Shown one piece after another: positions 4,576 through 28,628 of a stretch of 64,000 nt of DNA. Source of the stretch: a virus. Within the stretch, counting starts at the first letter, position 1. The number at the start of each line of letters is the position of its first letter. The notes under the pieces were generated by a model. It did not search any database. It worked only from the letters and a program-made list of their open reading frames with translations, and was not told the origin of the DNA. The translations under genes and the position numbers were made by a program. The stretch covers positions 102,717-166,716 of the IMG/VR virus record IMGVR_UViG_3300035698_018106; one strand, given 5' to 3'.

Positions 4576-5619
4576 TTATTTGTTAAACCTTTTAAATGCT
4601 GCATTTGTGATATGTTCATAATCTACATATCCAATAAACTTATGAATTTTATCATATCCACAATAACTCATATTTGTCCGTAAATAATCTTCAAAATTCT
4701 CTATCCAAGATTCTAATGTATATTCTACTTTTTGTTTCTTTGTTATTCCTTCAGCTGTTTTAATTTTATCTTTACCCCATTTTCTTTGAACAGCTTTAGT
4801 ACTCATTCCTCTATATTCTTTTTTAATAGTAAATCCCTTTTTCCATAATCTATTCGCTAGTTTATATGGGATTTTAAAACCTAAAAAATAATTACTTCCA
4901 GAACTTTCGATAGCTTTATTAAAAATAGATCCTAACATTATATAATCAGCACCTAATCCTAATGCTTTTATGATATCATCATATCCTTGCATACCACCAT
5001 CAATAACTATTTTAGTATTCCAGAATCCTCCTTTTATCTTTTCTTCTCTACATTCTTTTATTAAAGATCCTATAGGATAATTAATTGCGGCATTTGCTGC
5101 AGTTGTACAAGCCCCACCAGTTCCTATAGAGCATCTTATATAATCTGCGCCGGCCATTGCTAAATTTTTATATGTTAAAGGGTGGGCAACATTACCAACC
5201 ATTAAAATGATAAAAGGGCGTAGTTTCTTAATAGCTTTTATAACATCTATTAATCTTTGCATATGACCATTAGCTATATCTATTAATATACGCGGGTAAT
5301 GTTGAATATATTTAGTATCATATATATCACCATTTGCTGCGCGCTCTAAATCTTTTTCTATTTCAACAAGTCCTAATGATTGAAAATATTTACCTTTATT
5401 TATAAGATGTTCATCTTCAAATCCTCTAGGTAAACAAGGCACTATTTTATTTTGTATATAATGTTCTAGATTTTTCTCTGAAATAACAGTATCCATTGGA
5501 GATGCCATTAATGGTAAAGTTCCATCTTGTTCTGTATCACATTCACTTCTACTATTAATTGGGCTAACAATAGCAGGAGTAATTACAATGTCTTTTAAAT
5601 CGAATTTAATATCTTTCAT
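4576..5619 (-). CDS. GMP reductase-like protein (IMPDH/GMPR TIM-barrel family)
   Basis: 347 aa, the same length as GuaC. Motifs: LPLMASPMDTV (compare IIAANMDTV), CSIGTGGACTTAANA (compare GIGPGSVCTT, catalytic Cys loop) and VIDGGMQGYDDIIKALGLGADYIMLGS (compare SDGG...GADFVMLGG). There is no CBS-domain insertion. Confidence 0.55.
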   Translation of the reverse strand: MKDIKFDLKDIVITPAIVSPINSRSECDTEQDGTLPLMASPMDTVISEKNLEHYIQNKIVPCLPRGFEDEHLINKGKYFQSLGLVEIEKDLERAANGDIYDTKYIQHYPRILIDIANGHMQRLIDVIKAIKKLRPFIILMVGNVAHPLTYKNLAMAGADYIRCSIGTGGACTTAANAAINYPIGSLIKECREEKIKGGFWNTKIVIDGGMQGYDDIIKALGLGADYIMLGSIFNKAIESSGSNYFLGFKIPYKLANRLWKKGFTIKKEYRGMSTKAVQRKWGKDKIKTAEGITKKQKVEYTLESWIENFEDYLRTNMSYCGYDKIHKFIGYVDYEHITNAAFKRFNK

Positions 5620-5649
5620 AATTTTTATATGATAAAATATTTAAAAAGT

Positions 5650-6447
5650 TTAGATTAATTTATCTTCTTCATCTTCTTCATCAAATTCATCATCTTCAGG
5701 GAATGTAATTTCTTCTTTTGGTGGAAGATTAATTTCATCATCGGGTAACATTGCTGGTTGTGGTCCTGAAATTGAAGGTCTAACTAATGGTTCATTTTGA
5801 GATGAAGGCTGTTCAGGAACTTTTGAATCTATTTTTGGTTCTAGAGGTTCTTCTATATCATCTGGTTCATTAGTAGTAACAATAATATCGTCCTTTTTGA
5901 CATTATCAACAGGAATACTTTTATCATGAATATCTAATGGTTTTTCTTCATCAGGTGATGATATATCTGTATCACTATAATCTGTTGGAATTTCTGGAAC
6001 ATCATCTGGAACAATAGATGGCTTAAATGTAGGTTCTGATTTAGGTACTACTGGTCTTTGTTCAACATCTTTTTCTTTTGGCATTAATTTGTCAGCAGGT
6101 TCTTCAGTTTTTGGAATTTTATCACTAATGGATATCTTAGGTTTTCCGGTTTCTTTATCTACATCTAATACAATTTCTTTACTTCTATTAGATACGCTTC
6201 TCCATTTATTTTTATCTAAATCATAAAATGCAGCCACTTTATCTGATGATGGATTTTCTCCTGTTGGCTGTTCGGCAGTTGGTACATATTTCATCATAGT
6301 TGTACCTTTTGCGGGTCTAACATCTCCATCAATTTTTATAAATTCGAAATTAAGAATCTTTTTATTAAGAACTTTTCTAAGTTCCTCAACAGAAACTGGT
6401 TCTCCAACTAAAAGTTTTTCATTAAGAGTAGACCTAACAATATGCAT
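5650..6447 (-). CDS. hypothetical protein with a conserved-looking N-terminal domain and a Pro/Asp/Glu-rich disordered C-terminal tail
   Basis: 265-aa ORF. The C-terminal 180 aa are low-complexity (P, E, D, K). The GGATATATAAAATAA motif lies 10 nt upstream. Confidence 0.5.
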   Translation of the reverse strand: MHIVRSTLNEKLLVGEPVSVEELRKVLNKKILNFEFIKIDGDVRPAKGTTMMKYVPTAEQPTGENPSSDKVAAFYDLDKNKWRSVSNRSKEIVLDVDKETGKPKISISDKIPKTEEPADKLMPKEKDVEQRPVVPKSEPTFKPSIVPDDVPEIPTDYSDTDISSPDEEKPLDIHDKSIPVDNVKKDDIIVTTNEPDDIEEPLEPKIDSKVPEQPSSQNEPLVRPSISGPQPAMLPDDEINLPPKEEITFPEDDEFDEEDEEDKLI

Positions 6448-9118: not shown

Positions 9119-10555
9119 TTAAATAGTAGCTTTTAATCTTCGTTCTTTAATTTTTTGCAATTCATCCATCTCAATATCTGCTCTTTGAGATGTCTTTTTA
9201 GCCACTTTTCGTTGAGCATAAAAGTTAGCTAATATTTCTGGTATTAATGGTTCAAATGACGCGTCAAAAACAGCTCCAGATGAACATTTTATTTGATTAT
9301 CATTAGTTTTATAAAGTTTATCTTTGGTTATAAAATTCTCTATAGATATCATAAATTGTCTCATGATAGAAGGATAAAGAGATGCAAAGTCAAAAGAAGC
9401 TACCCAACCATATAAACCAGGTACAGGCTCAAATACAAAAGCTCCTTCGAATTGTTCTCTTTGTTTCTTATCCCATATTTTCGGAAATACTTGTTTCCTT
9501 TTATATGCATATCTAGATAAAGTGGCTTCCAACATTTGTATAGGAGAAAATGCATTCATAGCTTCAACCTGAGTAATATTTCCAAGTCCTAAGAAGGTAC
9601 TCATGGTTTTCAACTTTTCGTCCATTAATTCAACAAGAACAGAATCAATAGCATTATAGAAAACATATAATTCATAATCTTTATTAAACAATTCTTGAAA
9701 TGTTCCACCATATTTAACTTTTCTAATTCCGGTAGCTGCTTCAGCCACAAAATCTAATGTATTATTTTCCTTTACATCAATTGTTCTATCCCATTTCATA
9801 TAAATGGACATATAATCAACAATTAATTTATGTTGAGGAAGCATGATAGTCTTTGTTTTACCTCTGTCTTTTATTCTGTGTTCATACCATTGTCCGGTGG
9901 GTGACATCCAAGATATATCCATTCCTAATCTTTTTGTACATCTATTATAAATATACAACCAATCATATCCCCAAAAATTCCACCCTGTTATAAGAGGTGC
10001 TGTTCTAGCATAATTATATAACCAATCATATAACATATCAGCTTCATTATCATATTGTTTATAAACAAATTTATATTGTCTATCGTATTTGTCAATATGT
10101 TTATTAATGCTTTTTTCTATTCTATCGCATTCTTCACCCGATAAAGGTTTTAAACCAAATACTATGATATCCGGATATCTAACCCATGATATTGAATTAA
10201 TTCTATTTTTTGCCTCATCAGCTCCTGGAAATCCTTCATCAGTAACATCTACTTCAATATCACAAGCATATAATTTAGGGAGATTACGTTCGAATAAATG
10301 TTTTGTGTTAGCTTCGCCTGCATCCATAAAAAATTCTTGAATTCTGTGTTTATCAAGAAATTGTGATGGTCTTTTTGAAACTGGTTTATTGTCCCATGAT
10401 TTAATACCAGGAACAGCTTTACTTTGTTGATTAGTATATGAATAAGAATATTGGTGGTTTGAGGGTATAGCTAATTGAGAAAAAGCTACTTCACCTTCTT
10501 TATTAATGTATGAGACGACCATACGTCCTTGTCTTTGTTCTATATTTATTACCAT
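9119..10555 (-). CDS. DNA polymerase, family B, T4 gp43-like: N-terminal fragment (3'-5' exonuclease domain through polymerase motif A) only
   Basis: 478 aa, collinear with T4 gp43 residues ~100-470. Matches: LYACDIEV (Exo I; T4 VANCDIEV), ITGWNFWGYDWLYIYNR (T4 FTGWNIEGFDVPYIMNR), FYNAIDSVLV (Exo II; T4 YNIIDVESV), FEGAFVFEP (T4 FPGAFVFEP) and SFDFASLYPSIMRQ (motif A; T4 SFDLTSLYPSIIRQ). The ORF stops before the KxxxNSxYG and YGDTDS motifs. The RNR start codon lies 42 nt downstream. Confidence 0.8.
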   Translation of the reverse strand: MVINIEQRQGRMVVSYINKEGEVAFSQLAIPSNHQYSYSYTNQQSKAVPGIKSWDNKPVSKRPSQFLDKHRIQEFFMDAGEANTKHLFERNLPKLYACDIEVDVTDEGFPGADEAKNRINSISWVRYPDIIVFGLKPLSGEECDRIEKSINKHIDKYDRQYKFVYKQYDNEADMLYDWLYNYARTAPLITGWNFWGYDWLYIYNRCTKRLGMDISWMSPTGQWYEHRIKDRGKTKTIMLPQHKLIVDYMSIYMKWDRTIDVKENNTLDFVAEAATGIRKVKYGGTFQELFNKDYELYVFYNAIDSVLVELMDEKLKTMSTFLGLGNITQVEAMNAFSPIQMLEATLSRYAYKRKQVFPKIWDKKQREQFEGAFVFEPVPGLYGWVASFDFASLYPSIMRQFMISIENFITKDKLYKTNDNQIKCSSGAVFDASFEPLIPEILANFYAQRKVAKKTSQRADIEMDELQKIKERRLKATI

Positions 10556-12080: not shown

Positions 12081-13040
12081 TTATTTATCATGTTTTAAAT
12101 AAGGAGTAATAGAATTGGAAATTAAACGAGTTTTATATGATTCAGTTACATTTTCTTTAGAAGTTAAAGTGGCTCTAGGAAGTTGTTTTCCTTCAGCATA
12201 TATAGTTAATATCTGATCTCCTTTAGAATATTTTCTTATAGTATTGTCTGGATTTTTACCATATTTTTCCCAACCACTTTTTTCTATTTTTTCTAATACA
12301 TTTGGAATAGTATCTGTTATAAATACTCTATCAATTCCTGATTTTCCTGGTTTAAATTCATATGATATACCTAAACCATCTAGGGCATCTTTAGCTTTTA
12401 CATCTTTTAATGCTATATCATCTCTTAAAGACGTTTCATTAACTGTATCAGATTTCTTCTTTTTTATTGAAGTTAATGGGTGATCAGGTACGTGTTTAGA
12501 TGCCTTTTGGTAATCATCTAGAGTTTCTATATTAAATGATTCATTTTTATTTTTGAAATCTTGTAATATCGTATTTGTTTTAGAATCCTTTTTCTTGAAT
12601 GGAGGTTTTACACCCATTTTTTTAGCCATCATATTTCCGATTTTATCATATGGATTTATATTATTTTCGTTAGTTTGTGTTCCTATAGAAGCATCACTCC
12701 AACTATCTCCTGAACCAGAAGGTCCATCTGTATTTAATCCAGCTGATGCAGCAGGTACTGCACTTCCCATTCCTGGTGTATTAACAGTAGTTGCCATTGG
12801 AGCAGATACGCCACCAACATCTTCATTCACAGTCCCCATCAATTCATCATCAGATAAATTTATTAATAATCCATCCCATTTTTTTATAGCCATTTCTTTT
12901 GTTTTAGAAGGAGGCCCTTCTGCATGACATATTGAACATGTTATTGCATAACTAGCTTTTTCACCACTTGGCATTTCAGCATCTTTTCCTAGAGAAAATA
13001 CCCAAGTTTCATTTGAATTACAAAAAGGACATTGTTTCAT
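12081..13040 (-). CDS. Lar-like (restriction-alleviation family) Zn-ribbon domain protein with a disordered linker and a C-terminal domain of unknown function
   Basis: 319 aa. N-terminal MKQCPFCNS...CSICHAEGP...EMAIKKWDGL matches the CPFCG...C..C...GP....A...WN pattern of the Lar family. The Gly/Ser/Thr-rich segment is low-complexity. Confidence 0.5.
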   Translation of the reverse strand: MKQCPFCNSNETWVFSLGKDAEMPSGEKASYAITCSICHAEGPPSKTKEMAIKKWDGLLINLSDDELMGTVNEDVGGVSAPMATTVNTPGMGSAVPAASAGLNTDGPSGSGDSWSDASIGTQTNENNINPYDKIGNMMAKKMGVKPPFKKKDSKTNTILQDFKNKNESFNIETLDDYQKASKHVPDHPLTSIKKKKSDTVNETSLRDDIALKDVKAKDALDGLGISYEFKPGKSGIDRVFITDTIPNVLEKIEKSGWEKYGKNPDNTIRKYSKGDQILTIYAEGKQLPRATLTSKENVTESYKTRLISNSITPYLKHDK

Positions 13041-19310: not shown

Positions 19311-20843
19311 TTAAAGTTGAATTTTGAATCTTTTATAAGGGAAACGTTTTTCAGCGTAAATATCTCTTCTAGCATCCGCATGTCTCATTAAATAATTTTT
19401 TCGTTGATATCCACTTCCAAACTCATAATTATCAAAAAAATCAATAACTATAACCTTTTCTTTACCTGACATAAGTCTCATACCTCTACCCAAAACTTGT
19501 CTTACTATAAAATCTGATTTATAAGATTCCACTACAAAAATAGTATGTAAGTTTAAAATATCTATACCTTCAGAAAAAGTACCAATAGATGCAACAATTA
19601 TCACATCATTATTGTCTTCCATTTGTTTTTTATAATAGTCTCTATTATCTGCACCTGTACCACCATCTATGTAATAGACGCTTTTGTCTGTGTTCTCTTT
19701 TATCCAATTATATATAGTCCTACCATAATTATTTTTAATGTCACTAAATAACACTAGAGAGTTTTTAGTGGTTTTACTTATCATATCAACTATATAGTTA
19801 AAACGCTTTCTGGATTCCCTTGCAACATCCTTCTCTAAATTTAATAATTTAGCTCCATCTTTATCTTCAGCAGGTACATTTCTTAAATCATATAATTTTT
19901 TCTTTATATTGTTTTCAAGATAAGAAAATTCTAATCCTATTACTTCTATAGGGGTTGCATTCCCGGCATCAATTAAATCAGAAGAATGAATAGTATATAC
20001 TTTTGGTCCTAAATATGATTGAATAGTAAATGAATCACAAGAATCTTCTTTTGGAAGTGTTCCAGTTAATCCAAATTTATATTCTGCATTAAAACATTTA
20101 ACAAGAATACTTTTAATTGAATTGGCTTTAGCATGATGGGTTTCGTCTACACAAACAGCATCAAACTGTGCAAAATATTCTAATCCTTTTTTTGATAAAG
20201 TTTGATATGTTCCAAAAACTATATCAATATCTGTTTCATCATCTCTTTTCTTTGCTCCACCAAATGCGCATACAGATTTCCAATTAGGTCTCTTATCACA
20301 TCCATCTTCATATTCATAGAATTTTTCTTCTGATTGTGTTACTAATCCTACATTAGGAACAACATATAACATTTTAGGTTTATTAAGAACATCATGTAAG
20401 TATTTAAATATTAAAAAGGCTATAAGTGTTTTACCTCCTGATGTTGAAATTTCTTCTGTACAATTCTTAAATTTAATAACTCGGGCAGCACCTTCTAATT
20501 GATAATCTCTAGGTGTTATTTTAGAAGCACTGAAATATTCAGTTGCCCAAATTTTAAATGTACTAGCATCAAATTTATCATCAATCATAGAATCCATACC
20601 ATTTATAGATAAAGGGAAATGGAATTTTGTACAAACCTTTTTAATTTCCATCCACATACCGATAGGAATTCTACCCCATCTATCCATAAATTTAACATCT
20701 CCATCCCAATGAGGTACTTTTTTCTTAATGATGAAATAATTATCGACTTTTTTAGTCATAGAATATTCCAACTGTTCATATTCATTAGCTGTAGATTCTA
20801 CTATTTGTAGAAATTTCTTATCATCTGTTACTTTTAGTACCAT
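19311..20843 (-). CDS. uvsW: UvsW-like SF2 DNA helicase (recombination and replication fork remodelling)
   Basis: 510 aa (T4 UvsW is 502). Collinear matches to T4 UvsW: HWDGDVKF (NWDGRIRL), DYQLEGA, SGGKTL (Walker A), DETHH (DECH), KFGLTGTL (KFGLSGSL) and VIIVASIGTFSEGIDILNLHTIFVV (IIIVASYGVFSTGISVKNLHHVVL). Confidence 0.85.
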   Translation of the reverse strand: MVLKVTDDKKFLQIVESTANEYEQLEYSMTKKVDNYFIIKKKVPHWDGDVKFMDRWGRIPIGMWMEIKKVCTKFHFPLSINGMDSMIDDKFDASTFKIWATEYFSASKITPRDYQLEGAARVIKFKNCTEEISTSGGKTLIAFLIFKYLHDVLNKPKMLYVVPNVGLVTQSEEKFYEYEDGCDKRPNWKSVCAFGGAKKRDDETDIDIVFGTYQTLSKKGLEYFAQFDAVCVDETHHAKANSIKSILVKCFNAEYKFGLTGTLPKEDSCDSFTIQSYLGPKVYTIHSSDLIDAGNATPIEVIGLEFSYLENNIKKKLYDLRNVPAEDKDGAKLLNLEKDVARESRKRFNYIVDMISKTTKNSLVLFSDIKNNYGRTIYNWIKENTDKSVYYIDGGTGADNRDYYKKQMEDNNDVIIVASIGTFSEGIDILNLHTIFVVESYKSDFIVRQVLGRGMRLMSGKEKVIVIDFFDNYEFGSGYQRKNYLMRHADARRDIYAEKRFPYKRFKIQL

Positions 20844-25045: not shown

Positions 25046-25504
25046 TTAGTATAAAACTAAAGTATTTGGGTCATTATGGTCATATTCAGGATCAATTACG
25101 AATCCTTGTTTTATAAAAGCTTCTTCAGCATCATTTGTGAATGGGTGAAGTATAATAGGCAATTGATATTTTGTTTTTAGAAAGTTAAATACCTGTTTAC
25201 TTATGCTAAATCCTCTAAATTTATATCCAATATAGATCCAGTTTATAATAATATCTTTTGTTCTTATTTTATAATCTATAACACCACATACTATATCATT
25301 ATTATAAATTACAAAAATATTAGTTCCTTTGACAGAATCTAATATCATTTCATCTGTTTCATTGGTATAATCAAATTCTGAATCTATAAATTTTTCTGAA
25401 TCCTTAAAATTTTTAACTAACTTGATATTATTTATTAATTTCGCTCTCATTTTATTCCCATCCTTTTTGAACATCTGGAGAGAAGTTCGCATACGAAAAT
25501 TCAT
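25046..25504 (-). CDS. hypothetical protein (possible GNAT-like fold). The true start is probably an internal Met (ATG at 25450-25448), which avoids the overlap with the upstream gene.
   Basis: 152-aa ORF. IGYKFRGFSISKQVF weakly resembles GNAT motif A. The 5' 53 nt overlap the upstream CDS in another frame. Confidence 0.35.
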   Translation of the reverse strand: MNFRMRTSLQMFKKDGNKMRAKLINNIKLVKNFKDSEKFIDSEFDYTNETDEMILDSVKGTNIFVIYNNDIVCGVIDYKIRTKDIIINWIYIGYKFRGFSISKQVFNFLKTKYQLPIILHPFTNDAEEAFIKQGFVIDPEYDHNDPNTLVLY

Positions 25505-27317
25505 CTCTAGATACTAACTTAACTACATTACCATTTAAATCACTACATGCAAAACCCTCTTGATTAGTTTTCTTTAAATCTCCAGATTTCATCTTAAGAT
25601 AAGTTTGGAATTTACCAATATTATTAAGTTTACTTATAAAGATTTCTTTTAGATTTGAAATTTCAGATATCATATGTATAATATATATCCATTCTTTATT
25701 TGATTGCTCTATAGCGTCAATCATCTCGGCAAATCTAACTATAACTTTATTTTGTCCTTTTTCAGTTTTAAGTTTACCTGCTTCCATTAACGATCTATTT
25801 TGAAGGAATTCTATAAATTCTGCAAGAACACCTTCTATCGAATTAAATGAATTAATTTTTACATTAGCTTTAATTAAAGAGTTCTGATAAATGTTAAATA
25901 ATTTTATAAGCTTTGTTGATTTGATTATATCATGATAATTAGTAGATATTTTAAGTGTTTTACCTATTACATTTAGATCAGTTAAAATAATTTCTATTTC
26001 TTTAGATTCTTCTTCTGTAAAGTTTATAACCCCTGCAAATGACTCAATATAAGGGTCTGTCATTAACATATTATCAATACTTGTTAATTCGGAAGATTTA
26101 GCATCATAACTAGCGCTAACATTTTCTAAATCTTTTCCTGTATATCTAGTATGCCATGTAATACCTATATCTGCTTTATTTATAAGATTTCCTAAATCTG
26201 ATTTTTTAGGTATAACATAATAAATAGTGTTTGGATGAAATGCCCAATAAGGTTCTCCTTCTATTTCGGCATCTTGTAATGACATATCATCAAATAAGAA
26301 ATCACCTTGCCAAATTTCTCCTTTTGGAAGATTAATTTTATCTATGTATTTTAGAAATGTTTTTAATTTATAAACTAATTGAGGTCTTTCTCCTAATTCA
26401 GATTCTATTTCAGCAATTGTTGAAAATACTTTTGGAGATTTTGAAAAAAGTCCTTTCATTGCAATACCATTATCTGGTAATCCTGGAAATTTAGACCATG
26501 CAAATATAGCAGGGGCTCCATCTATCTTTACAGAAAGACTCATATCTTCTTTTTTAGTTGAACCCTTTAGATCATTATATAAATTATTAAACATTTTTAG
26601 AACCCAATCAATTCCCTCTACTCCACCAAGTAATACTAAATCCTCAGCATGTGTCATATGCTTATTTACTTTTGATACTATAGTAGATTCATCTAATTTA
26701 TTAGACCCACCTAAATATTTCCATATATTTTCTATTTGATTTACTGAATTTTCAGGATATCCTGAAGCAAAACCTTTAAAATCGTCATTTTTGATATCTT
26801 CTCTTAATATAGATGCAGAAATTAATTCACCTTGATGTGGTCCATTTTTAAATTTCATAGGATCTACATCAATTACTAATTCAACTATTTCAACATCTTT
26901 AGGTACTCCATCAAAATATTTTCCTCCAGGTTGATTTTGTGTAGTAAAATCAACTACTCTTTTATAATCATCGCCTTTTGTACTAGCTCCTAACGCATAA
27001 CGACCTGGAGGTAAATCTTCAACTGCTTTATATGCAGTCAAAATAGGTGATGGATATTTTGATTTTTCTATAGATACATTAGAGATATGATTAGTAAGTT
27101 CTTTAGCAATCTTTACTCCTAAATCTTGACTTATTCCATCTCGTTCTTTAGGACCAACTATTACTTTAACTTCTTTTACATTTGGATGTTGAGCATATCT
27201 ATAAATTAAATCCAGATGAGCTCCTGTTGTTGGTTTAAACCCGCCCGGAATCATAATTATGATATCTGGTGGGTTTTTTGTTTTATCCCATTCTTTAATT
27301 GTCAGAAATCTTTTCAT
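25452..27317 (-). CDS. Two-domain protein: an N-terminal cytidylyltransferase-fold nucleotidyltransferase domain (NMNAT-like GxFxPxTxGH) and an Rnl1-like RNA ligase domain
   Basis: 621 aa. IIIMIPGGFKPTTGAHLDLIYRYA matches the (H/T)xGH nucleotidyltransferase signature. LSVKIDGAPAIFAW at ~residue 262 resembles ligase motif I (T4 Rnl1 ILTKEDGSLVSTY). AEIEGEPYWAF...YYVIPKKSDLG resembles Rnl1 motifs IV and V (EGYVAV...KIKSDWY). Confidence 0.45.
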   Translation of the reverse strand: MKRFLTIKEWDKTKNPPDIIIMIPGGFKPTTGAHLDLIYRYAQHPNVKEVKVIVGPKERDGISQDLGVKIAKELTNHISNVSIEKSKYPSPILTAYKAVEDLPPGRYALGASTKGDDYKRVVDFTTQNQPGGKYFDGVPKDVEIVELVIDVDPMKFKNGPHQGELISASILREDIKNDDFKGFASGYPENSVNQIENIWKYLGGSNKLDESTIVSKVNKHMTHAEDLVLLGGVEGIDWVLKMFNNLYNDLKGSTKKEDMSLSVKIDGAPAIFAWSKFPGLPDNGIAMKGLFSKSPKVFSTIAEIESELGERPQLVYKLKTFLKYIDKINLPKGEIWQGDFLFDDMSLQDAEIEGEPYWAFHPNTIYYVIPKKSDLGNLINKADIGITWHTRYTGKDLENVSASYDAKSSELTSIDNMLMTDPYIESFAGVINFTEEESKEIEIILTDLNVIGKTLKISTNYHDIIKSTKLIKLFNIYQNSLIKANVKINSFNSIEGVLAEFIEFLQNRSLMEAGKLKTEKGQNKVIVRFAEMIDAIEQSNKEWIYIIHMISEISNLKEIFISKLNNIGKFQTYLKMKSGDLKKTNQEGFACSDLNGNVVKLVSRDEFSYANFSPDVQKGWE

Positions 27318-28166: not shown

Positions 28167-28628
28167 TTAAATTTTTAATAGATTTTTTTTATAGATTTTT
28201 ATAATTCGCTCACATTTTTGTTTCCAATTAGGACTACCAAAAGAACTTATAGCTTTTGTTGGTGAACAATTTTTTAAAATCATTTTATTTTCTGTCCAAT
28301 CATCATCAATATGCCAAACGAAATTGTTTTCTTTTAGATAAGGCCATTTATTATCCATATTTGTAAAGTGCACTTTTTCTAATGGAAGTCCTATATCTTT
28401 AATAAGATCAAATAATTCAAAGTTAGTCTCATCAACATGATGTGTGGTATGATATTCAGCTTTATAAAGAGCATCATCACCAAATCTAGTTGTAGTAATC
28501 CATACATCATACCCTTTAATTATTAATTCCCTAGCATATTCTTTTATTGAAGGGAGTTCAATAGTGCCATCAAAATCAAATGATAAGCTAATATTTTTAT
28601 TTTCATTCATAGCGTTAAATATAACCAA
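28167..28628 (-). CDS. HAD-superfamily hydrolase (phosphatase)
   Basis: 153 aa. N-terminal SFDFDGTIE (DxDGT, the same motif as the T4 Pnkp phosphatase domain, DVDGT). Later HIDDD motif. Confidence 0.55.
   Translation of the reverse strand: MVIFNAMNENKNISLSFDFDGTIELPSIKEYARELIIKGYDVWITTTRFGDDALYKAEYHTTHHVDETNFELFDLIKDIGLPLEKVHFTNMDNKWPYLKENNFVWHIDDDWTENKMILKNCSPTKAISSFGSPNWKQKCERIIKIYKKNLLKI

Follow-up and report, generated by a model that had tools for sequence, protein, structure and literature searches.

The window, which is the whole 64,000-nucleotide stretch of viral DNA that was analysed, contains an open reading frame in which an N-terminal nucleotidyltransferase domain is fused to a DUF6267 domain (Table 1). 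The first-pass annotation had delimited this frame exactly, but the coding strand is the minus strand: the ATG lies at 27317 and the stop codon at 25452-25454, and translation of the same interval on the plus strand gives many stops. The gene sits between gp32/primase/UvsW and a RuvC-like gene, that is, within a replication/recombination cluster. The window also encodes a fragment of an NAD-dependent DNA ligase (LigA) at 2-1573 on the minus strand (Pfam DNA_ligase_aden, E 3e-29), approximately 24 kb from the gene. No tRNA genes were found in the window, and no end-healing enzyme (kinase or phosphatase) was firmly identified next to the gene. A 2H-phosphoesterase match in P0034 fell below threshold, and a PDB search with a HAD-like ORF at 28167-28628 was uninformative. 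In megablast, no annotated phage matched the region.

Table 1. Features of the fusion gene; conservation was scored over 43 sequences for the N-terminal domain and over 62 diverse family members for DUF6267.
Feature	Residues (aa)	Position	Strand	Conservation or basis
Adenylyltransferase-DUF6267 fusion protein, whole ORF	621 + stop	25452..27317	-	
N-terminal HIGH-superfamily (PPAT/NMNAT-like) nucleotidyltransferase domain	18-205	26703..27266	-	
PGGFKPTTGAH, T/HxGH nucleotide-binding motif	24-34	27216..27248	-	P24, K28, H34 invariant in 43/43; position 31 is T in 31, H in 12
ISASILR, ISxSxxR motif	166-172	26802..26822	-	R172 in 42/43; S167 in 40/43
DUF6267 domain, divergent Rnl1-like covalent nucleotidyltransferase (predicted)	218-621	25455..26666	-	
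NKHMTHAED, family-specific N-terminal motif	218-226	26640..26666	-	H223, E225, D226 invariant
SVKIDGAP, motif I	262-269	26511..26534	-	K, D, G invariant in 62/62
K264, predicted AMP-accepting lysine	264	26526..26528	-	Invariant in 62/62, as are D266 and G267
AMKGLF	286-291	26445..26462	-	K288 invariant; aligns with sister-family ARNKG
WQGDFLFD, candidate motif III strand	336-343	26289..26312	-	Q337, G338, D339 invariant
FHPNTIYY	360-367	26217..26240	-	F360, H361, N363, I365, Y367 invariant
All-helical insertion, ~133 aa	435-567	25617..26015	-	DSSP of model
EGFACSDLNGNVVKLVSR, motifs IV + V	587-604	25506..25559	-	E587, G588, D593, K600, R604 invariant
FSYANFSPDVQKGW, family-specific C-terminal motif	607-620	25458..25499	-	Invariant F, S, N, F, S and K-G-W

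The Pfam model CTP_transf_like stayed below threshold for the full protein as well as for its N-terminal domain alone, and the check proposed at the outset, with CTP_transf_like and RNA_ligase on the whole protein, yielded no significant match to either model; the domains were therefore assigned by family profiles and structure prediction. The N-terminal signature GGFKPTTGAHLDL was confirmed at aa 25-37, inside a conserved PGGFKPxT/HGxH motif. A Rossmann-like fold together with this N-terminal (T/H)xGH element places the domain in the PPAT/NMNAT branch of the HIGH superfamily, and a C-terminal motif of the ISxTxxR type is present as well (I166-S-A-S-x-x-R172). PPAT was detectable from the domain by sequence profile (E 1.7e-6), and profile comparison aligned ISASILR with the ISSSIVK of PPAT. 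The domain, previously described as NMNAT-like, is thus a HIGH-type nucleotidyltransferase, but judged by its sequence it is nearer PPAT than NMNAT. It is a PPAT/NMNAT-type enzyme whose fold and motifs do not discriminate its substrate. Enzymes of this class catalyze the reaction X-phosphate + ATP <-> AppX + PPi. Although it shares the T/HxGH and ISxSxxR motifs with PPAT/CoaD and NMN/NaMN adenylyltransferases, the domain differs from them in its family-specific invariant residues (R59, K114, D117 and Y41), in its C-terminal helical tail, and in always being tied in these phages to a ligase-like partner, never occurring as a stand-alone metabolic gene.

The remainder of the protein matched Pfam DUF6267 (PF19782) well above the gathering threshold (E 2.3e-67, 228.4 bits against a cut-off of 27), with aa 218-613 covering profile positions 1-373 of 376; this was the sole Pfam match reported for the protein, RNA_ligase not being significant. 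KIDG, proposed earlier as ligase motif I, is present at aa 264-267, and its K, D and G are invariant in the 62 family members, so the objection that had been named in advance, a lysine not conserved among homologues, does not arise. In the structural model, motif I is flanked by two beta-strands, and it pairs with motif I of T4 RNA ligase 1 (Rnl1), around K99, both in a sub-optimal hhalign alignment and via a sister family of DUF6267. The N-terminal NKHMTHAED motif is common to this sister family, where it takes the form HxNHPF[DE]D. The sister-family ARNKG was paired by hhalign with Rnl1 kSKGS, and K288 may accordingly be the equivalent of Rnl1 Lys119. Motifs III and IIIa were placed by position and via the sister family. 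WQGDFLFD is a candidate for motif III by its position and its strand, and FHPNTIYY has counterparts in sister-family NVIxY and in the NRIVLxY that directly follows motif III in Rnl1. The all-helical insertion splits the N-terminal part of the nucleotidyltransferase core from motifs IV and V, as it does at the same position in the sister family. The element previously read as motifs IV/V, "EG...KKSD", proved not to be conserved: in the corresponding IEGE (aa 352-355) and KKSD (aa 371-374), position 354 is G in 31/62 and position 371 is K in 32/62, whereas D is the commonest residue at positions 353 and 372. The conserved element resembling motifs IV and V lies far downstream, at aa 587-604, with the pattern EGFACSD...VKLVSR, and EGFACSDLNGNVVKLVSR aligns as a confident hhalign block with Rnl1 IEGYVAVMKDGSHFKIKSD. 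The second motif V lysine is absent; its place is taken by Val602, the Rnl1 counterpart being K242. Approximately 17 residues remain after motif V, and no C-terminal all-helical tRNA-specificity domain follows it.

Sequence-profile methods gave no conventionally significant direct match of DUF6267 to any ligase family, and the DUF6267 profile matched no ligase among PDB sequences. In hhalign, the DUF6267 core scored 27.5 against the Rnl1 profile, compared with at most 23.0 for 30 column-shuffled nulls and 14.3 for a reversed null; this corresponds to E ~0.007 and a probability of ~5%, which is not conventionally significant, and the confident block falls on motifs IV-V. With the same small profiles, Rnl1 against Rnl2 scored only 19.4, and DUF6267 against Rnl2 gave nothing, whether the domain was taken whole, without its insertion or as its N-terminal half. 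The sister family scored higher against Rnl1 (37.3, E 4.3e-4; shuffled nulls at most 22.1), with motifs I and III paired. The link between DUF6267 and the sister family was seen only in an unfiltered HMM search, in which motif I was aligned between the sister-family HMM and DUF6267 members (E 1e-3 to 1e-2), and in an unguided MAFFT alignment, in which all motifs of the two families were co-aligned; hhalign in default and global modes gave no such link, and a merged profile of the two families brought no gain against Rnl1 over the separate comparisons. Foldseek against the PDB returned nothing at E <= 0.001, and its weak matches included LigA, T4 DNA ligase, REL1 and vaccinia capping enzyme. 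Taken together, these results make DUF6267 most probably a covalent nucleotidyltransferase, with Rnl1 as the closest relative that could be detected. The earlier designation of an Rnl1-like RNA ligase domain therefore holds as to its nearest relative and fails as to a significant Rnl1 or RNA_ligase profile match; since the Rnl1 score beats the nulls yet is not conventionally significant, we call DUF6267 Rnl1-like and not a member of that family.

In Rnl1, Lys99 is the AMP-accepting lysine, and mutants of Glu159 and Glu227 are largely inactive (PMC6035275). DUF6267 shares with T4 Rnl1 (gp63), its best profile-profile partner, the KxDG of motif I, a Lys-Gly element some 20-24 residues past motif I, an N-x-I-x-x-Y strand, an EG[FY] motif IV followed by the motif V lysine at a 13-residue spacing (E587-K600, compared with E227-K240 in Rnl1), and an all-helical accessory domain; an OB fold is absent from both. 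Besides the lack of conventionally significant sequence similarity, the two differ as follows: the helical module is inserted before motifs IV/V in DUF6267, whereas that of Rnl1 forms its C-terminal domain; the candidate motif III acid is an Asp set within QGD; Val takes the place of the second motif V lysine, with an invariant Arg four residues past K600; additional invariant motifs occur (NxHMTHAED, WHT and F-S-x-x-N-F-S...KGW); and DUF6267 is obligatorily coupled to a HIGH nucleotidyltransferase. Compared with the nick-sealing RNA ligases Rnl2/REL1 and Rnl5 (Naegleria), identity is 8-12% and the accessory domains are different. We consider it unlikely that DUF6267 is not a polynucleotide ligase at all, its KxDG and ligase-like fold being convergent or vestigial and the protein serving, for example, AMPylation of proteins or small molecules or a structural role, with the N-terminal domain an ordinary metabolic nucleotidyltransferase for sugar or cofactor activation, as present annotations of cyanophages take it to be. 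Every link to ligases is statistically weak, and the cytidylyltransferase of phage S-SZBM1 was detected in virions and annotated by the authors as an auxiliary metabolic gene (PMC9146016). Against such a reading, the predicted fold and the motif order agree independently, with five collinear invariant motifs, Rnl1 scores above all nulls and above the Rnl1-Rnl2 score, and two methods of structure comparison both brought up ligases.

The pairing of the two domains in one protein is genuine and conserved. A census of fusions comprised 38 proteins with the architecture of the window protein (AT-DUF6267), 8 more with an extra middle domain (AT-mid-DUF6267), 4 DUF6267-CT, 2 CT-DUF6267 and 1 DUF6267-AT, and a syntenic relative carries the two domains as separate genes. 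Phages of cyanobacteria, SAR11, OM43 and Stenotrophomonas repeatedly couple the two domains, as neighboring genes or as fusions of either order, and the sister family, too, is fused or adjacent to both adenylyltransferase subtypes. In S-PM2, S-RIM32, S-SZBM1, HTVC008M, Melnitz, C48C1 and DLP_6, a cytidyltransferase gene is located downstream of DUF6267 at a distance of 0-2 genes, and DUF6267 with a neighboring "cytidyltransferase" was present in every examined neighborhood of T4-like marine phages, whose hosts are Synechococcus, Prochlorococcus, SAR11 and OM43. The window N-terminal domain is homologous to the core "cytidyltransferase" of cyanomyoviruses (S-RIM32 gp087, S-PM2 p142): although BLASTP was insignificant and hhalign against single cyanophage sequences weak, hhalign with the family profile resolved the link (92%, E 6.6e-7). 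The hypothetical protein upstream of that cytidyltransferase (T4-like GC 71) is DUF6267, and the window protein is therefore a fused form of the cyanophage pair. It differs from this pair in that its N-terminal domain belongs to another adenylyltransferase subfamily, in that the order is reversed (adenylyltransferase then ligase in the window, ligase gene then cytidyltransferase gene in cyanophages), and in that the window phage additionally has LigA. The fused architecture had not been recognized as a described family, which agrees with our finding that its C-terminal domain carries a name without literature: a literature search for DUF6267 found no mention. The architecture is undescribed in the papers searched; the family could stand under another name in the RNA-repair survey of Burroughs & Aravind 2016. 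Current annotations call the two proteins of the pair hypothetical or class them as an auxiliary metabolic gene whose function is unclear (PMC9146016).

The first-pass annotation had suggested, as one of two readings, that the N-terminal domain regenerates NAD+ for the separate NAD-dependent DNA ligase of the phage, and a LigA fragment is indeed encoded in the window. This idea was rejected on phyletic grounds and is very improbable: in cyanomyoviruses, HTVC008M, Melnitz and others, the adenylyltransferase pairs with DUF6267, not with LigA, and the ten organism names that a LigA tblastn search gave most often include no cyanophage, although 87 cyanophage records have DUF6267. Because the pair is conserved in cyanomyoviruses without a recognized DNA ligase (PMC2984593), the partner of the adenylyltransferase is DUF6267, and in the window LigA lies far from the gene. 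A self-contained cycle, in which NAD+ or another AppX dinucleotide, not ATP, donates AMP to the ligase-like domain and the fused NMNAT-like domain re-adenylylates the released NMN with ATP, would free ligation from the host NAD+ pool. Enzymes of this class carry out exactly the reaction required, X-P + ATP -> AppX + PPi, the close linkage of the domains across many lineages, fused or adjacent, suggests substrate hand-over, and the top Foldseek ligase matches, although insignificant, are LigA adenylation domains. Such a cycle nevertheless appears quite improbable, given that the N-terminal domain is nearer PPAT in sequence, that Pfam and PDB sequence searches found no LigA-type domain in DUF6267, and that Rnl1-type ligases use ATP as cofactor.

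On balance, we regard the gene as probably encoding an enzyme with two functions that belongs to a conserved phage module for joining nucleic-acid ends. By analogy with ligases, Lys264 of KIDG would form a lysyl-AMP intermediate, the AMP would be passed to a 5'-phosphate end, and that end would then be sealed to a 3'-OH; the acid of motif III would be Asp339, motif IV would comprise Glu587-Gly588, and motif V Lys600/Arg604. The repeated fusion or adjacency of the N-terminal domain to the ligase-like domain across many lineages makes it most likely that both act on the same adenylate chemistry; the N-terminal domain may make or recycle the AMP donor of the ligase, or form or resolve a 5'-adenylated end. 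Ligase activity, nucleophile, substrate and N-domain role of the fusion protein are all inferred here; the substrate would be of RNA type by ancestry, with DNA or RNA/DNA junctions possible by context. Counting against this reading are the missing conventionally significant match to a ligase family, the absence from the protein of an OB or other known nucleic-acid-binding domain, and the absence from the window of tRNA genes and, next to the gene, of a firmly identified end-healing enzyme. We know of no RNA repair system that has a HIGH nucleotidyltransferase as a component, nor of an established biochemical rationale for its pairing with a ligase.

T4-like cyanophages have been noted since 2005-2010 to have no recognizable DNA ligase or RNase H (PMC2984593). 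It is possible, if doubtful, that DUF6267 supplies T4-like cyanophages and pelagiphages with their missing DNA (or RNA-DNA junction) ligase for replication or recombination. It would seal nicks between Okazaki fragments or nicks arising in recombination, and the adenylyltransferase would be its obligatory helper. The gene always lies within a replication/recombination cluster, adjoining gp32, primase and UvsW in the window and gp41, UvsX, MazG and NrdB in cyanophages, DUF6267 is a large family, with 3236 clusters (50% identity) matching at E <= 1e-3, LigA tblastn lists no cyanophage among its ten commonest names, and cyanomyoviruses are without g30 or rnh homologues, "distant homologues not yet identified" being left possible (PMC2984593). 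However, Rnl1, the closest relative by sequence, is an RNA ligase, neither an OB domain nor any other known nucleic-acid-binding domain is present in the protein, and in T4/E. coli the host ligase can replace the phage ligase (PMC2984593); moreover, the window phage already encodes its own NAD-dependent DNA ligase, and hence does not need this protein for replicative nick sealing. A more tentative proposal is that DUF6267 and the HIGH-type adenylyltransferase might be the missing ligase system of T4-like cyanophages and pelagiphages, with a two-enzyme chemistry new to science in which the PPAT/NMNAT-like partner either makes and recycles the adenylate donor of the ligase, or itself makes or resolves a 5'-adenylated nucleic-acid intermediate. 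The ligase-superfamily assignment of DUF6267 and its Rosetta-stone link to the cytidyltransferase provide a directly testable hypothesis for the cyanophage ligase gap; if true, two "core genes of unknown function" would be explained in some of the ocean's most abundant viruses. The assignment points to a predicted, unprecedented coupling of a HIGH-type adenylyltransferase with a lysine-adenylating ligase, and ligases of a new family that handle their cofactor in an unusual way could find use as reagents.

The combination of a ligase with accessory nucleotide-handling domains recalls multi-domain RNA repair enzymes such as T4 Pnkp + Rnl1, fungal/plant Trl1 and RlaP-associated ligases, although the window protein is without a kinase, phosphatase or 2H phosphoesterase domain, and the RNA repair systems described in PMC7824862 include no HIGH nucleotidyltransferase. 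The middle domain of the long homologues had no Pfam, PHROG or PDB assignment. RlaP itself (PF10127) was considered for this domain and rejected by sequence, no PF10127 match being found at E <= 1. It carries a Pol-beta-type G-S...DxD...D signature, with a faint DNA_pol_B_palm match (E 0.047), which recalls the RNA-ligase-associated Pol-beta nucleotidyltransferase RlaP (PMC7824862, PMC12776372). The HTVC008M cassette includes a P-loop kinase-like gene, a further likeness to multi-domain RNA repair systems.

The coordinates that the first-pass annotation gave for the fusion gene bound a real 621-aa ORF, whose coding strand was found by translation to be the minus strand (see the table); the plus strand of the interval has stops throughout. 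The reported N-terminal signature, GGFKPTTGAHLDL, was located at aa 25-37. Alignment of the N-domain family revealed the motifs PGGFKPx[T/H]GxH and I-S-A-S/T-x-x-R, with P24, K28, H34, Y41, G55, R59, K114, and D117 invariant. Single-sequence searches were weak, with PPAT matched at E 0.006 (phmmer, PDB), and the Pfam CTP_transf_like model suggested in that annotation was reported for neither the fusion protein nor the N-domain. The family profile matched approximately 30 PPAT structures (best E 1.7e-6), aligning the ISxSxxR segment with ISSSIVK of PPAT. Because of these motifs and profile matches, the domain can be assigned by sequence to the HIGH-superfamily nucleotidyltransferases, in the small-molecule adenylyltransferase class. 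The label "NMNAT-like" holds at the fold level; the sequence is nearer to PPAT, with no specific substrate implied. Used alone as the query, the domain also retrieved free-standing homologues of 170-370 aa, to none of which Pfam assigned a family.

The C-terminal domain matched Pfam DUF6267, a name not found in the literature searched, over the whole profile (E 2.3e-67), as well as phrog_455, a PHROG of unknown function. Among 62 diverse members, the invariant residues are H223, E225, D226; K264, D266, G267, P269; K288, F291; Q337-G338-D339; F360, H361, N363, I365, Y367; G385, W388-H389-T390, Y392, G394; E587-G588, D593, K600, R604; and F607-S608, N611-F612-S613, K618-G619-W620. The KIDG earlier read as ligase motif I (aa 264-267) is therefore conserved at K264, D266, and G267, but the "EG...KKSD" read as motifs IV/V, located at IEGE (aa 352-355) and KKSD (aa 371-374), is variable at both places in the family alignment. 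In the predicted structure (pLDDT 89.5, pTM 0.85), a beta-rich core is split by an all-helical insertion of ~133 residues (aa 435-567), and two short strands bearing E587-G588 and K600 are modeled as rejoining the core. The predicted nucleophile is K264, and motifs IV and V would correspond to E587-G588 and K600, respectively.

Direct comparison with known ligases gave remote signals. Foldseek returned no match at E <= 0.001 for the model; the weaker matches included four LigA adenylation domains, T4 DNA ligase, REL1, and the vaccinia capping enzyme. A second structure-comparison method also recovered ligases, but scattered among them were clearly spurious matches to helical proteins with similar Z. 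The DUF6267 profile found no ligase among PDB sequences and did not match an Rnl2 profile that combined T4 Rnl2 with eight phage homologues. Against a T4 RNA ligase 1 (Rnl1) profile, hhalign scored 27.5-28.1 (E ~0.007-0.01, ~5% probability), below conventional significance and short of formal Rnl1 membership, versus 14.3 for the reversed Rnl1 profile and a maximum of 23.0 (mean 15.8) for 30 column-shuffled profiles. Rnl1 and Rnl2, undisputed members of one superfamily, scored only 19.4 against each other with the same small profiles. The one confident block paired DUF6267 QEGFAVSDxxGNxVKLVDR with Rnl1 IEGYVAVMKDGSHFKIKSD, i.e., motifs IV-V, with an E-to-K spacing of 13 residues in both; the motif I pairing (SVKxDGAP with TKEDGSL) came from a sub-optimal alignment.

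A bridging sister family was found through a 414-aa gene, missed by the DUF6267 HMM, that overlaps a stand-alone adenylyltransferase gene (P0127). Its homologues are an 805-aa fusion, a 421-aa protein encoded by two uncultured jumbo phages, and, in Microcystis phage Mel-JY01, the C-terminal two-thirds of a 639-aa "cytidylyltransferase like protein". This previously unannotated family, which has no Pfam or PDB sequence match, carries HxNHPF[DE]D, EK[TL]DG, ARNKG, nlEIIyPxxxNVIxY and, after a long helical region, EG[VI]VFxYxGxxYKLTGxF[AS]P[VI]NQ. Its HMM, used unfiltered on a set of 396, gave E-values of 1e-3 to 1e-2 for DUF6267 proteins and aligned motif I exactly and NVIxY with NTIVY; unguided MAFFT co-aligned all the shared motifs and the helical insertion. 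Against Rnl1 it scored 37.3 (E 4.3e-4, 34% probability, 251 columns; shuffled maximum 22.1), pairing motif I, and nlEIIyPxtxNVIxYd with NFEFVAPTNRIVLAY, which includes Glu159. Lys99 of Rnl1 is the AMP acceptor, and Glu159 and Glu227 mutants are largely inactive (PMC6035275). Given the fold, the order of the motifs, profile scores higher than those of the nulls, and the transitive chain through the sister family, DUF6267 is likely a very divergent Rnl1-like covalent nucleotidyltransferase. The main uncertainty lies in the remoteness of all its ligase links and in the ligase activity, which is predicted.

In tblastn searches of annotated phages, only the C-terminal 65% of the fusion protein matched, in 115 records, mostly T4-like cyanophages, together with Pelagibacter HTVC008M, Methylophilales Melnitz, Stenotrophomonas DLP_6, Prevotella phages, and others. 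A "cytidyltransferase" lies directly downstream of DUF6267 in S-RIM32 and S-SZBM1, and its orthologues (mutual BLAST E 1e-25 to 1e-105) lie 1-2 genes downstream in HTVC008M, Melnitz, C48C1, and DLP_6; annotation merged the two in the original S-PM2 record. The window N-domain family is homologous to this cyanophage protein (hhalign 92%, E 6.6e-7, 151 columns). Among 258 DUF6267 proteins collected, 156 stand alone and 38 share the window architecture, with the window-type adenylyltransferase (AT) N-terminal; the others include AT-middle domain-DUF6267 (8), DUF6267-AT (1), and, with the cyanophage-type domain (CT), DUF6267-CT (4) and CT-DUF6267 (2). A syntenic relative (L027) encodes the adenylyltransferase (219 aa) and DUF6267 (423 aa) in two genes, between which sits a C2H2-zinc-finger/DUF7487 ORF on the opposite strand, probably the result of a mobile-gene insertion. 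Fusions of the sister family with the cyanophage-type domain were also found (HMM E 2e-9 and 5e-8), and the family adjoins the window-type domain. Each adenylyltransferase subtype thus occurs with each ligase-like family, and both orders are seen. This is a Rosetta-stone signal of functional coupling between the two domains, not a one-genome accident.

We propose that the fusion protein is a module for nucleic-acid end joining. In this model, Lys264-AMP would form on the ligase-like domain, which would seal 5'-P/3'-OH breaks, and the HIGH-type domain would transfer adenylyl to or from a phosphate in the same pathway (X-P + ATP <-> AppX + PPi). Ancestry favors an RNA-type ligase, because Rnl1 is the nearest relative, an OB fold is absent and a helical accessory module present, some homologues carry an additional domain bearing a Pol-beta-type signature, and the HTVC008M cassette includes a P-loop kinase-like gene. 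A replicative or recombination role is favored by genomic context: the cyanophage pair follows gp41/UvsX/MazG, and the fusion gene lies between UvsW-like helicase/primase/gp32 and amidase/RuvC-like resolvase, an order shared by a metagenomic relative. The same role is favored by the lack of a recognized ligase in cyanomyoviruses, in which homologues of g30 (DNA ligase) and rnh were not found, with distant homologues left as a possibility (PMC2984593). An NAD-dependent DNA ligase (LigA) fragment encoded in the window argues against a simple replicative DNA ligase role for the fusion protein, at least here; RNR, family-B polymerase, dUTPase, and a GMP-reductase-like protein are encoded there as well. 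The earlier suggestion that the N-domain feeds this LigA conflicts with the phyletic distribution: DUF6267 is present in 87 cyanophage records, and no cyanophage is among the ten commonest organism names in LigA tblastn. An NAD-type ligation cycle in cis within the fusion protein would be possible. Both folds are already known, and both genes were catalogued singly, as a DUF and as "cytidyltransferase"; within the literature searched, the putative placement of DUF6267 and the sister family in the ligase superfamily, the cyanophage cytidyltransferase as dedicated DUF6267 partner, and the fused architecture appear to be new.

Positions of the fusion gene, its domains, relatives, and neighbors
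Feature	Position	Remark
Fusion gene	window 25452-27317 (-)	ATG at 27317, stop 25452-25454
N-terminal domain	aa ~18-205	
DUF6267 domain	aa 218-621	Pfam
Sister family	L026:6632-7876	
Sister family	L028:3269-5188	Mel-JY01 WWT39297
Sister family	L029:1-2415	
Sister family	L030:1129-2391	
Separate gene pair	L027:4562-7384	
Long homologue P0037	L005:2806-5475	
Cytidylyltransferase and next gene, S-SZBM1	L004:4700-7189	ORFs 140, 139
gp129, HTVC008M	L003:5730-6392	Zeta_toxin/AAA_33
FDFDGTI ORF	window 28167-28628 (-)	153 aa, two genes upstream of fusion gene
Downstream ORF	window 25046-25504 (-)	152 aa, first ATG assumed
Family-B DNA polymerase	window 9119-10555 (-)	478 aa
UvsW-like helicase	window 19311-20843	without intein
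UvsW-like helicase, syntenic metagenomic relative	L005:9521-10513	intein (Hint/Intein_splicing)
Replication-side gene block	window 4576-6447 and 12081-13040 (-)	GMP-reductase/IMPDH-like, WYL_2-domain, Lar-match genes

In the long homologues (P0037, P0039, P0041, P0062, P0068, P0069, P0071, P0077, P0093), a ~260-aa middle domain sits between adenylyltransferase and DUF6267, with the signature GS[FY]GKK...YGD[IL]D[IV]...Q[VI]D[LF]ML typical of Pol-beta-type nucleotidyltransferases. It has no PDB sequence match, and PF10127/RlaP was ruled out by sequence; if it is Pol-beta-type, these proteins would each hold three different nucleotidyltransferase-type domains. Unassigned C-terminal extensions occur in 36 of the 258 proteins, including two families of 390-540 aa (P0056, P0073, P0092, P0094; P0067, P0075, P0076, P0090) in which visual inspection suggested PD-(D/E)xK-like patterns (PSDIY...SLKK; GDVEIE...EVEVKG); one of these families matches phrog_1462 (unknown function). 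HTVC008M gp129, the P-loop kinase-like gene between the DUF6267 and cytidyltransferase genes, might be a polynucleotide-kinase-like end-healing partner. Proteomics of purified S-SZBM1 virions identified few peptides of the cytidylyltransferase and the next gene product (PMC9146016), and the partner enzyme could be packaged in virions.

Nothing closely related to the window (GC 27%) turned up in the phage collection searched, and no tRNA genes were found in its 64,000 nt. FDFDGTI is the HAD-phosphatase DxDxT motif, and the phosphatase domain of T4 Pnkp has the HAD fold; the ORF carrying FDFDGTI had only a weak PHROG match (E 1.5e-4) and no informative PDB match. The downstream ORF, which has no family assignment, overlaps the fusion gene 3' end by 53 nt. 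The Lar (restriction alleviation) match in the replication-side block is N-terminal and near threshold. The polymerase ORF comprises only the exonuclease domain and the start of the polymerase domain, which suggests a split or interrupted gene.
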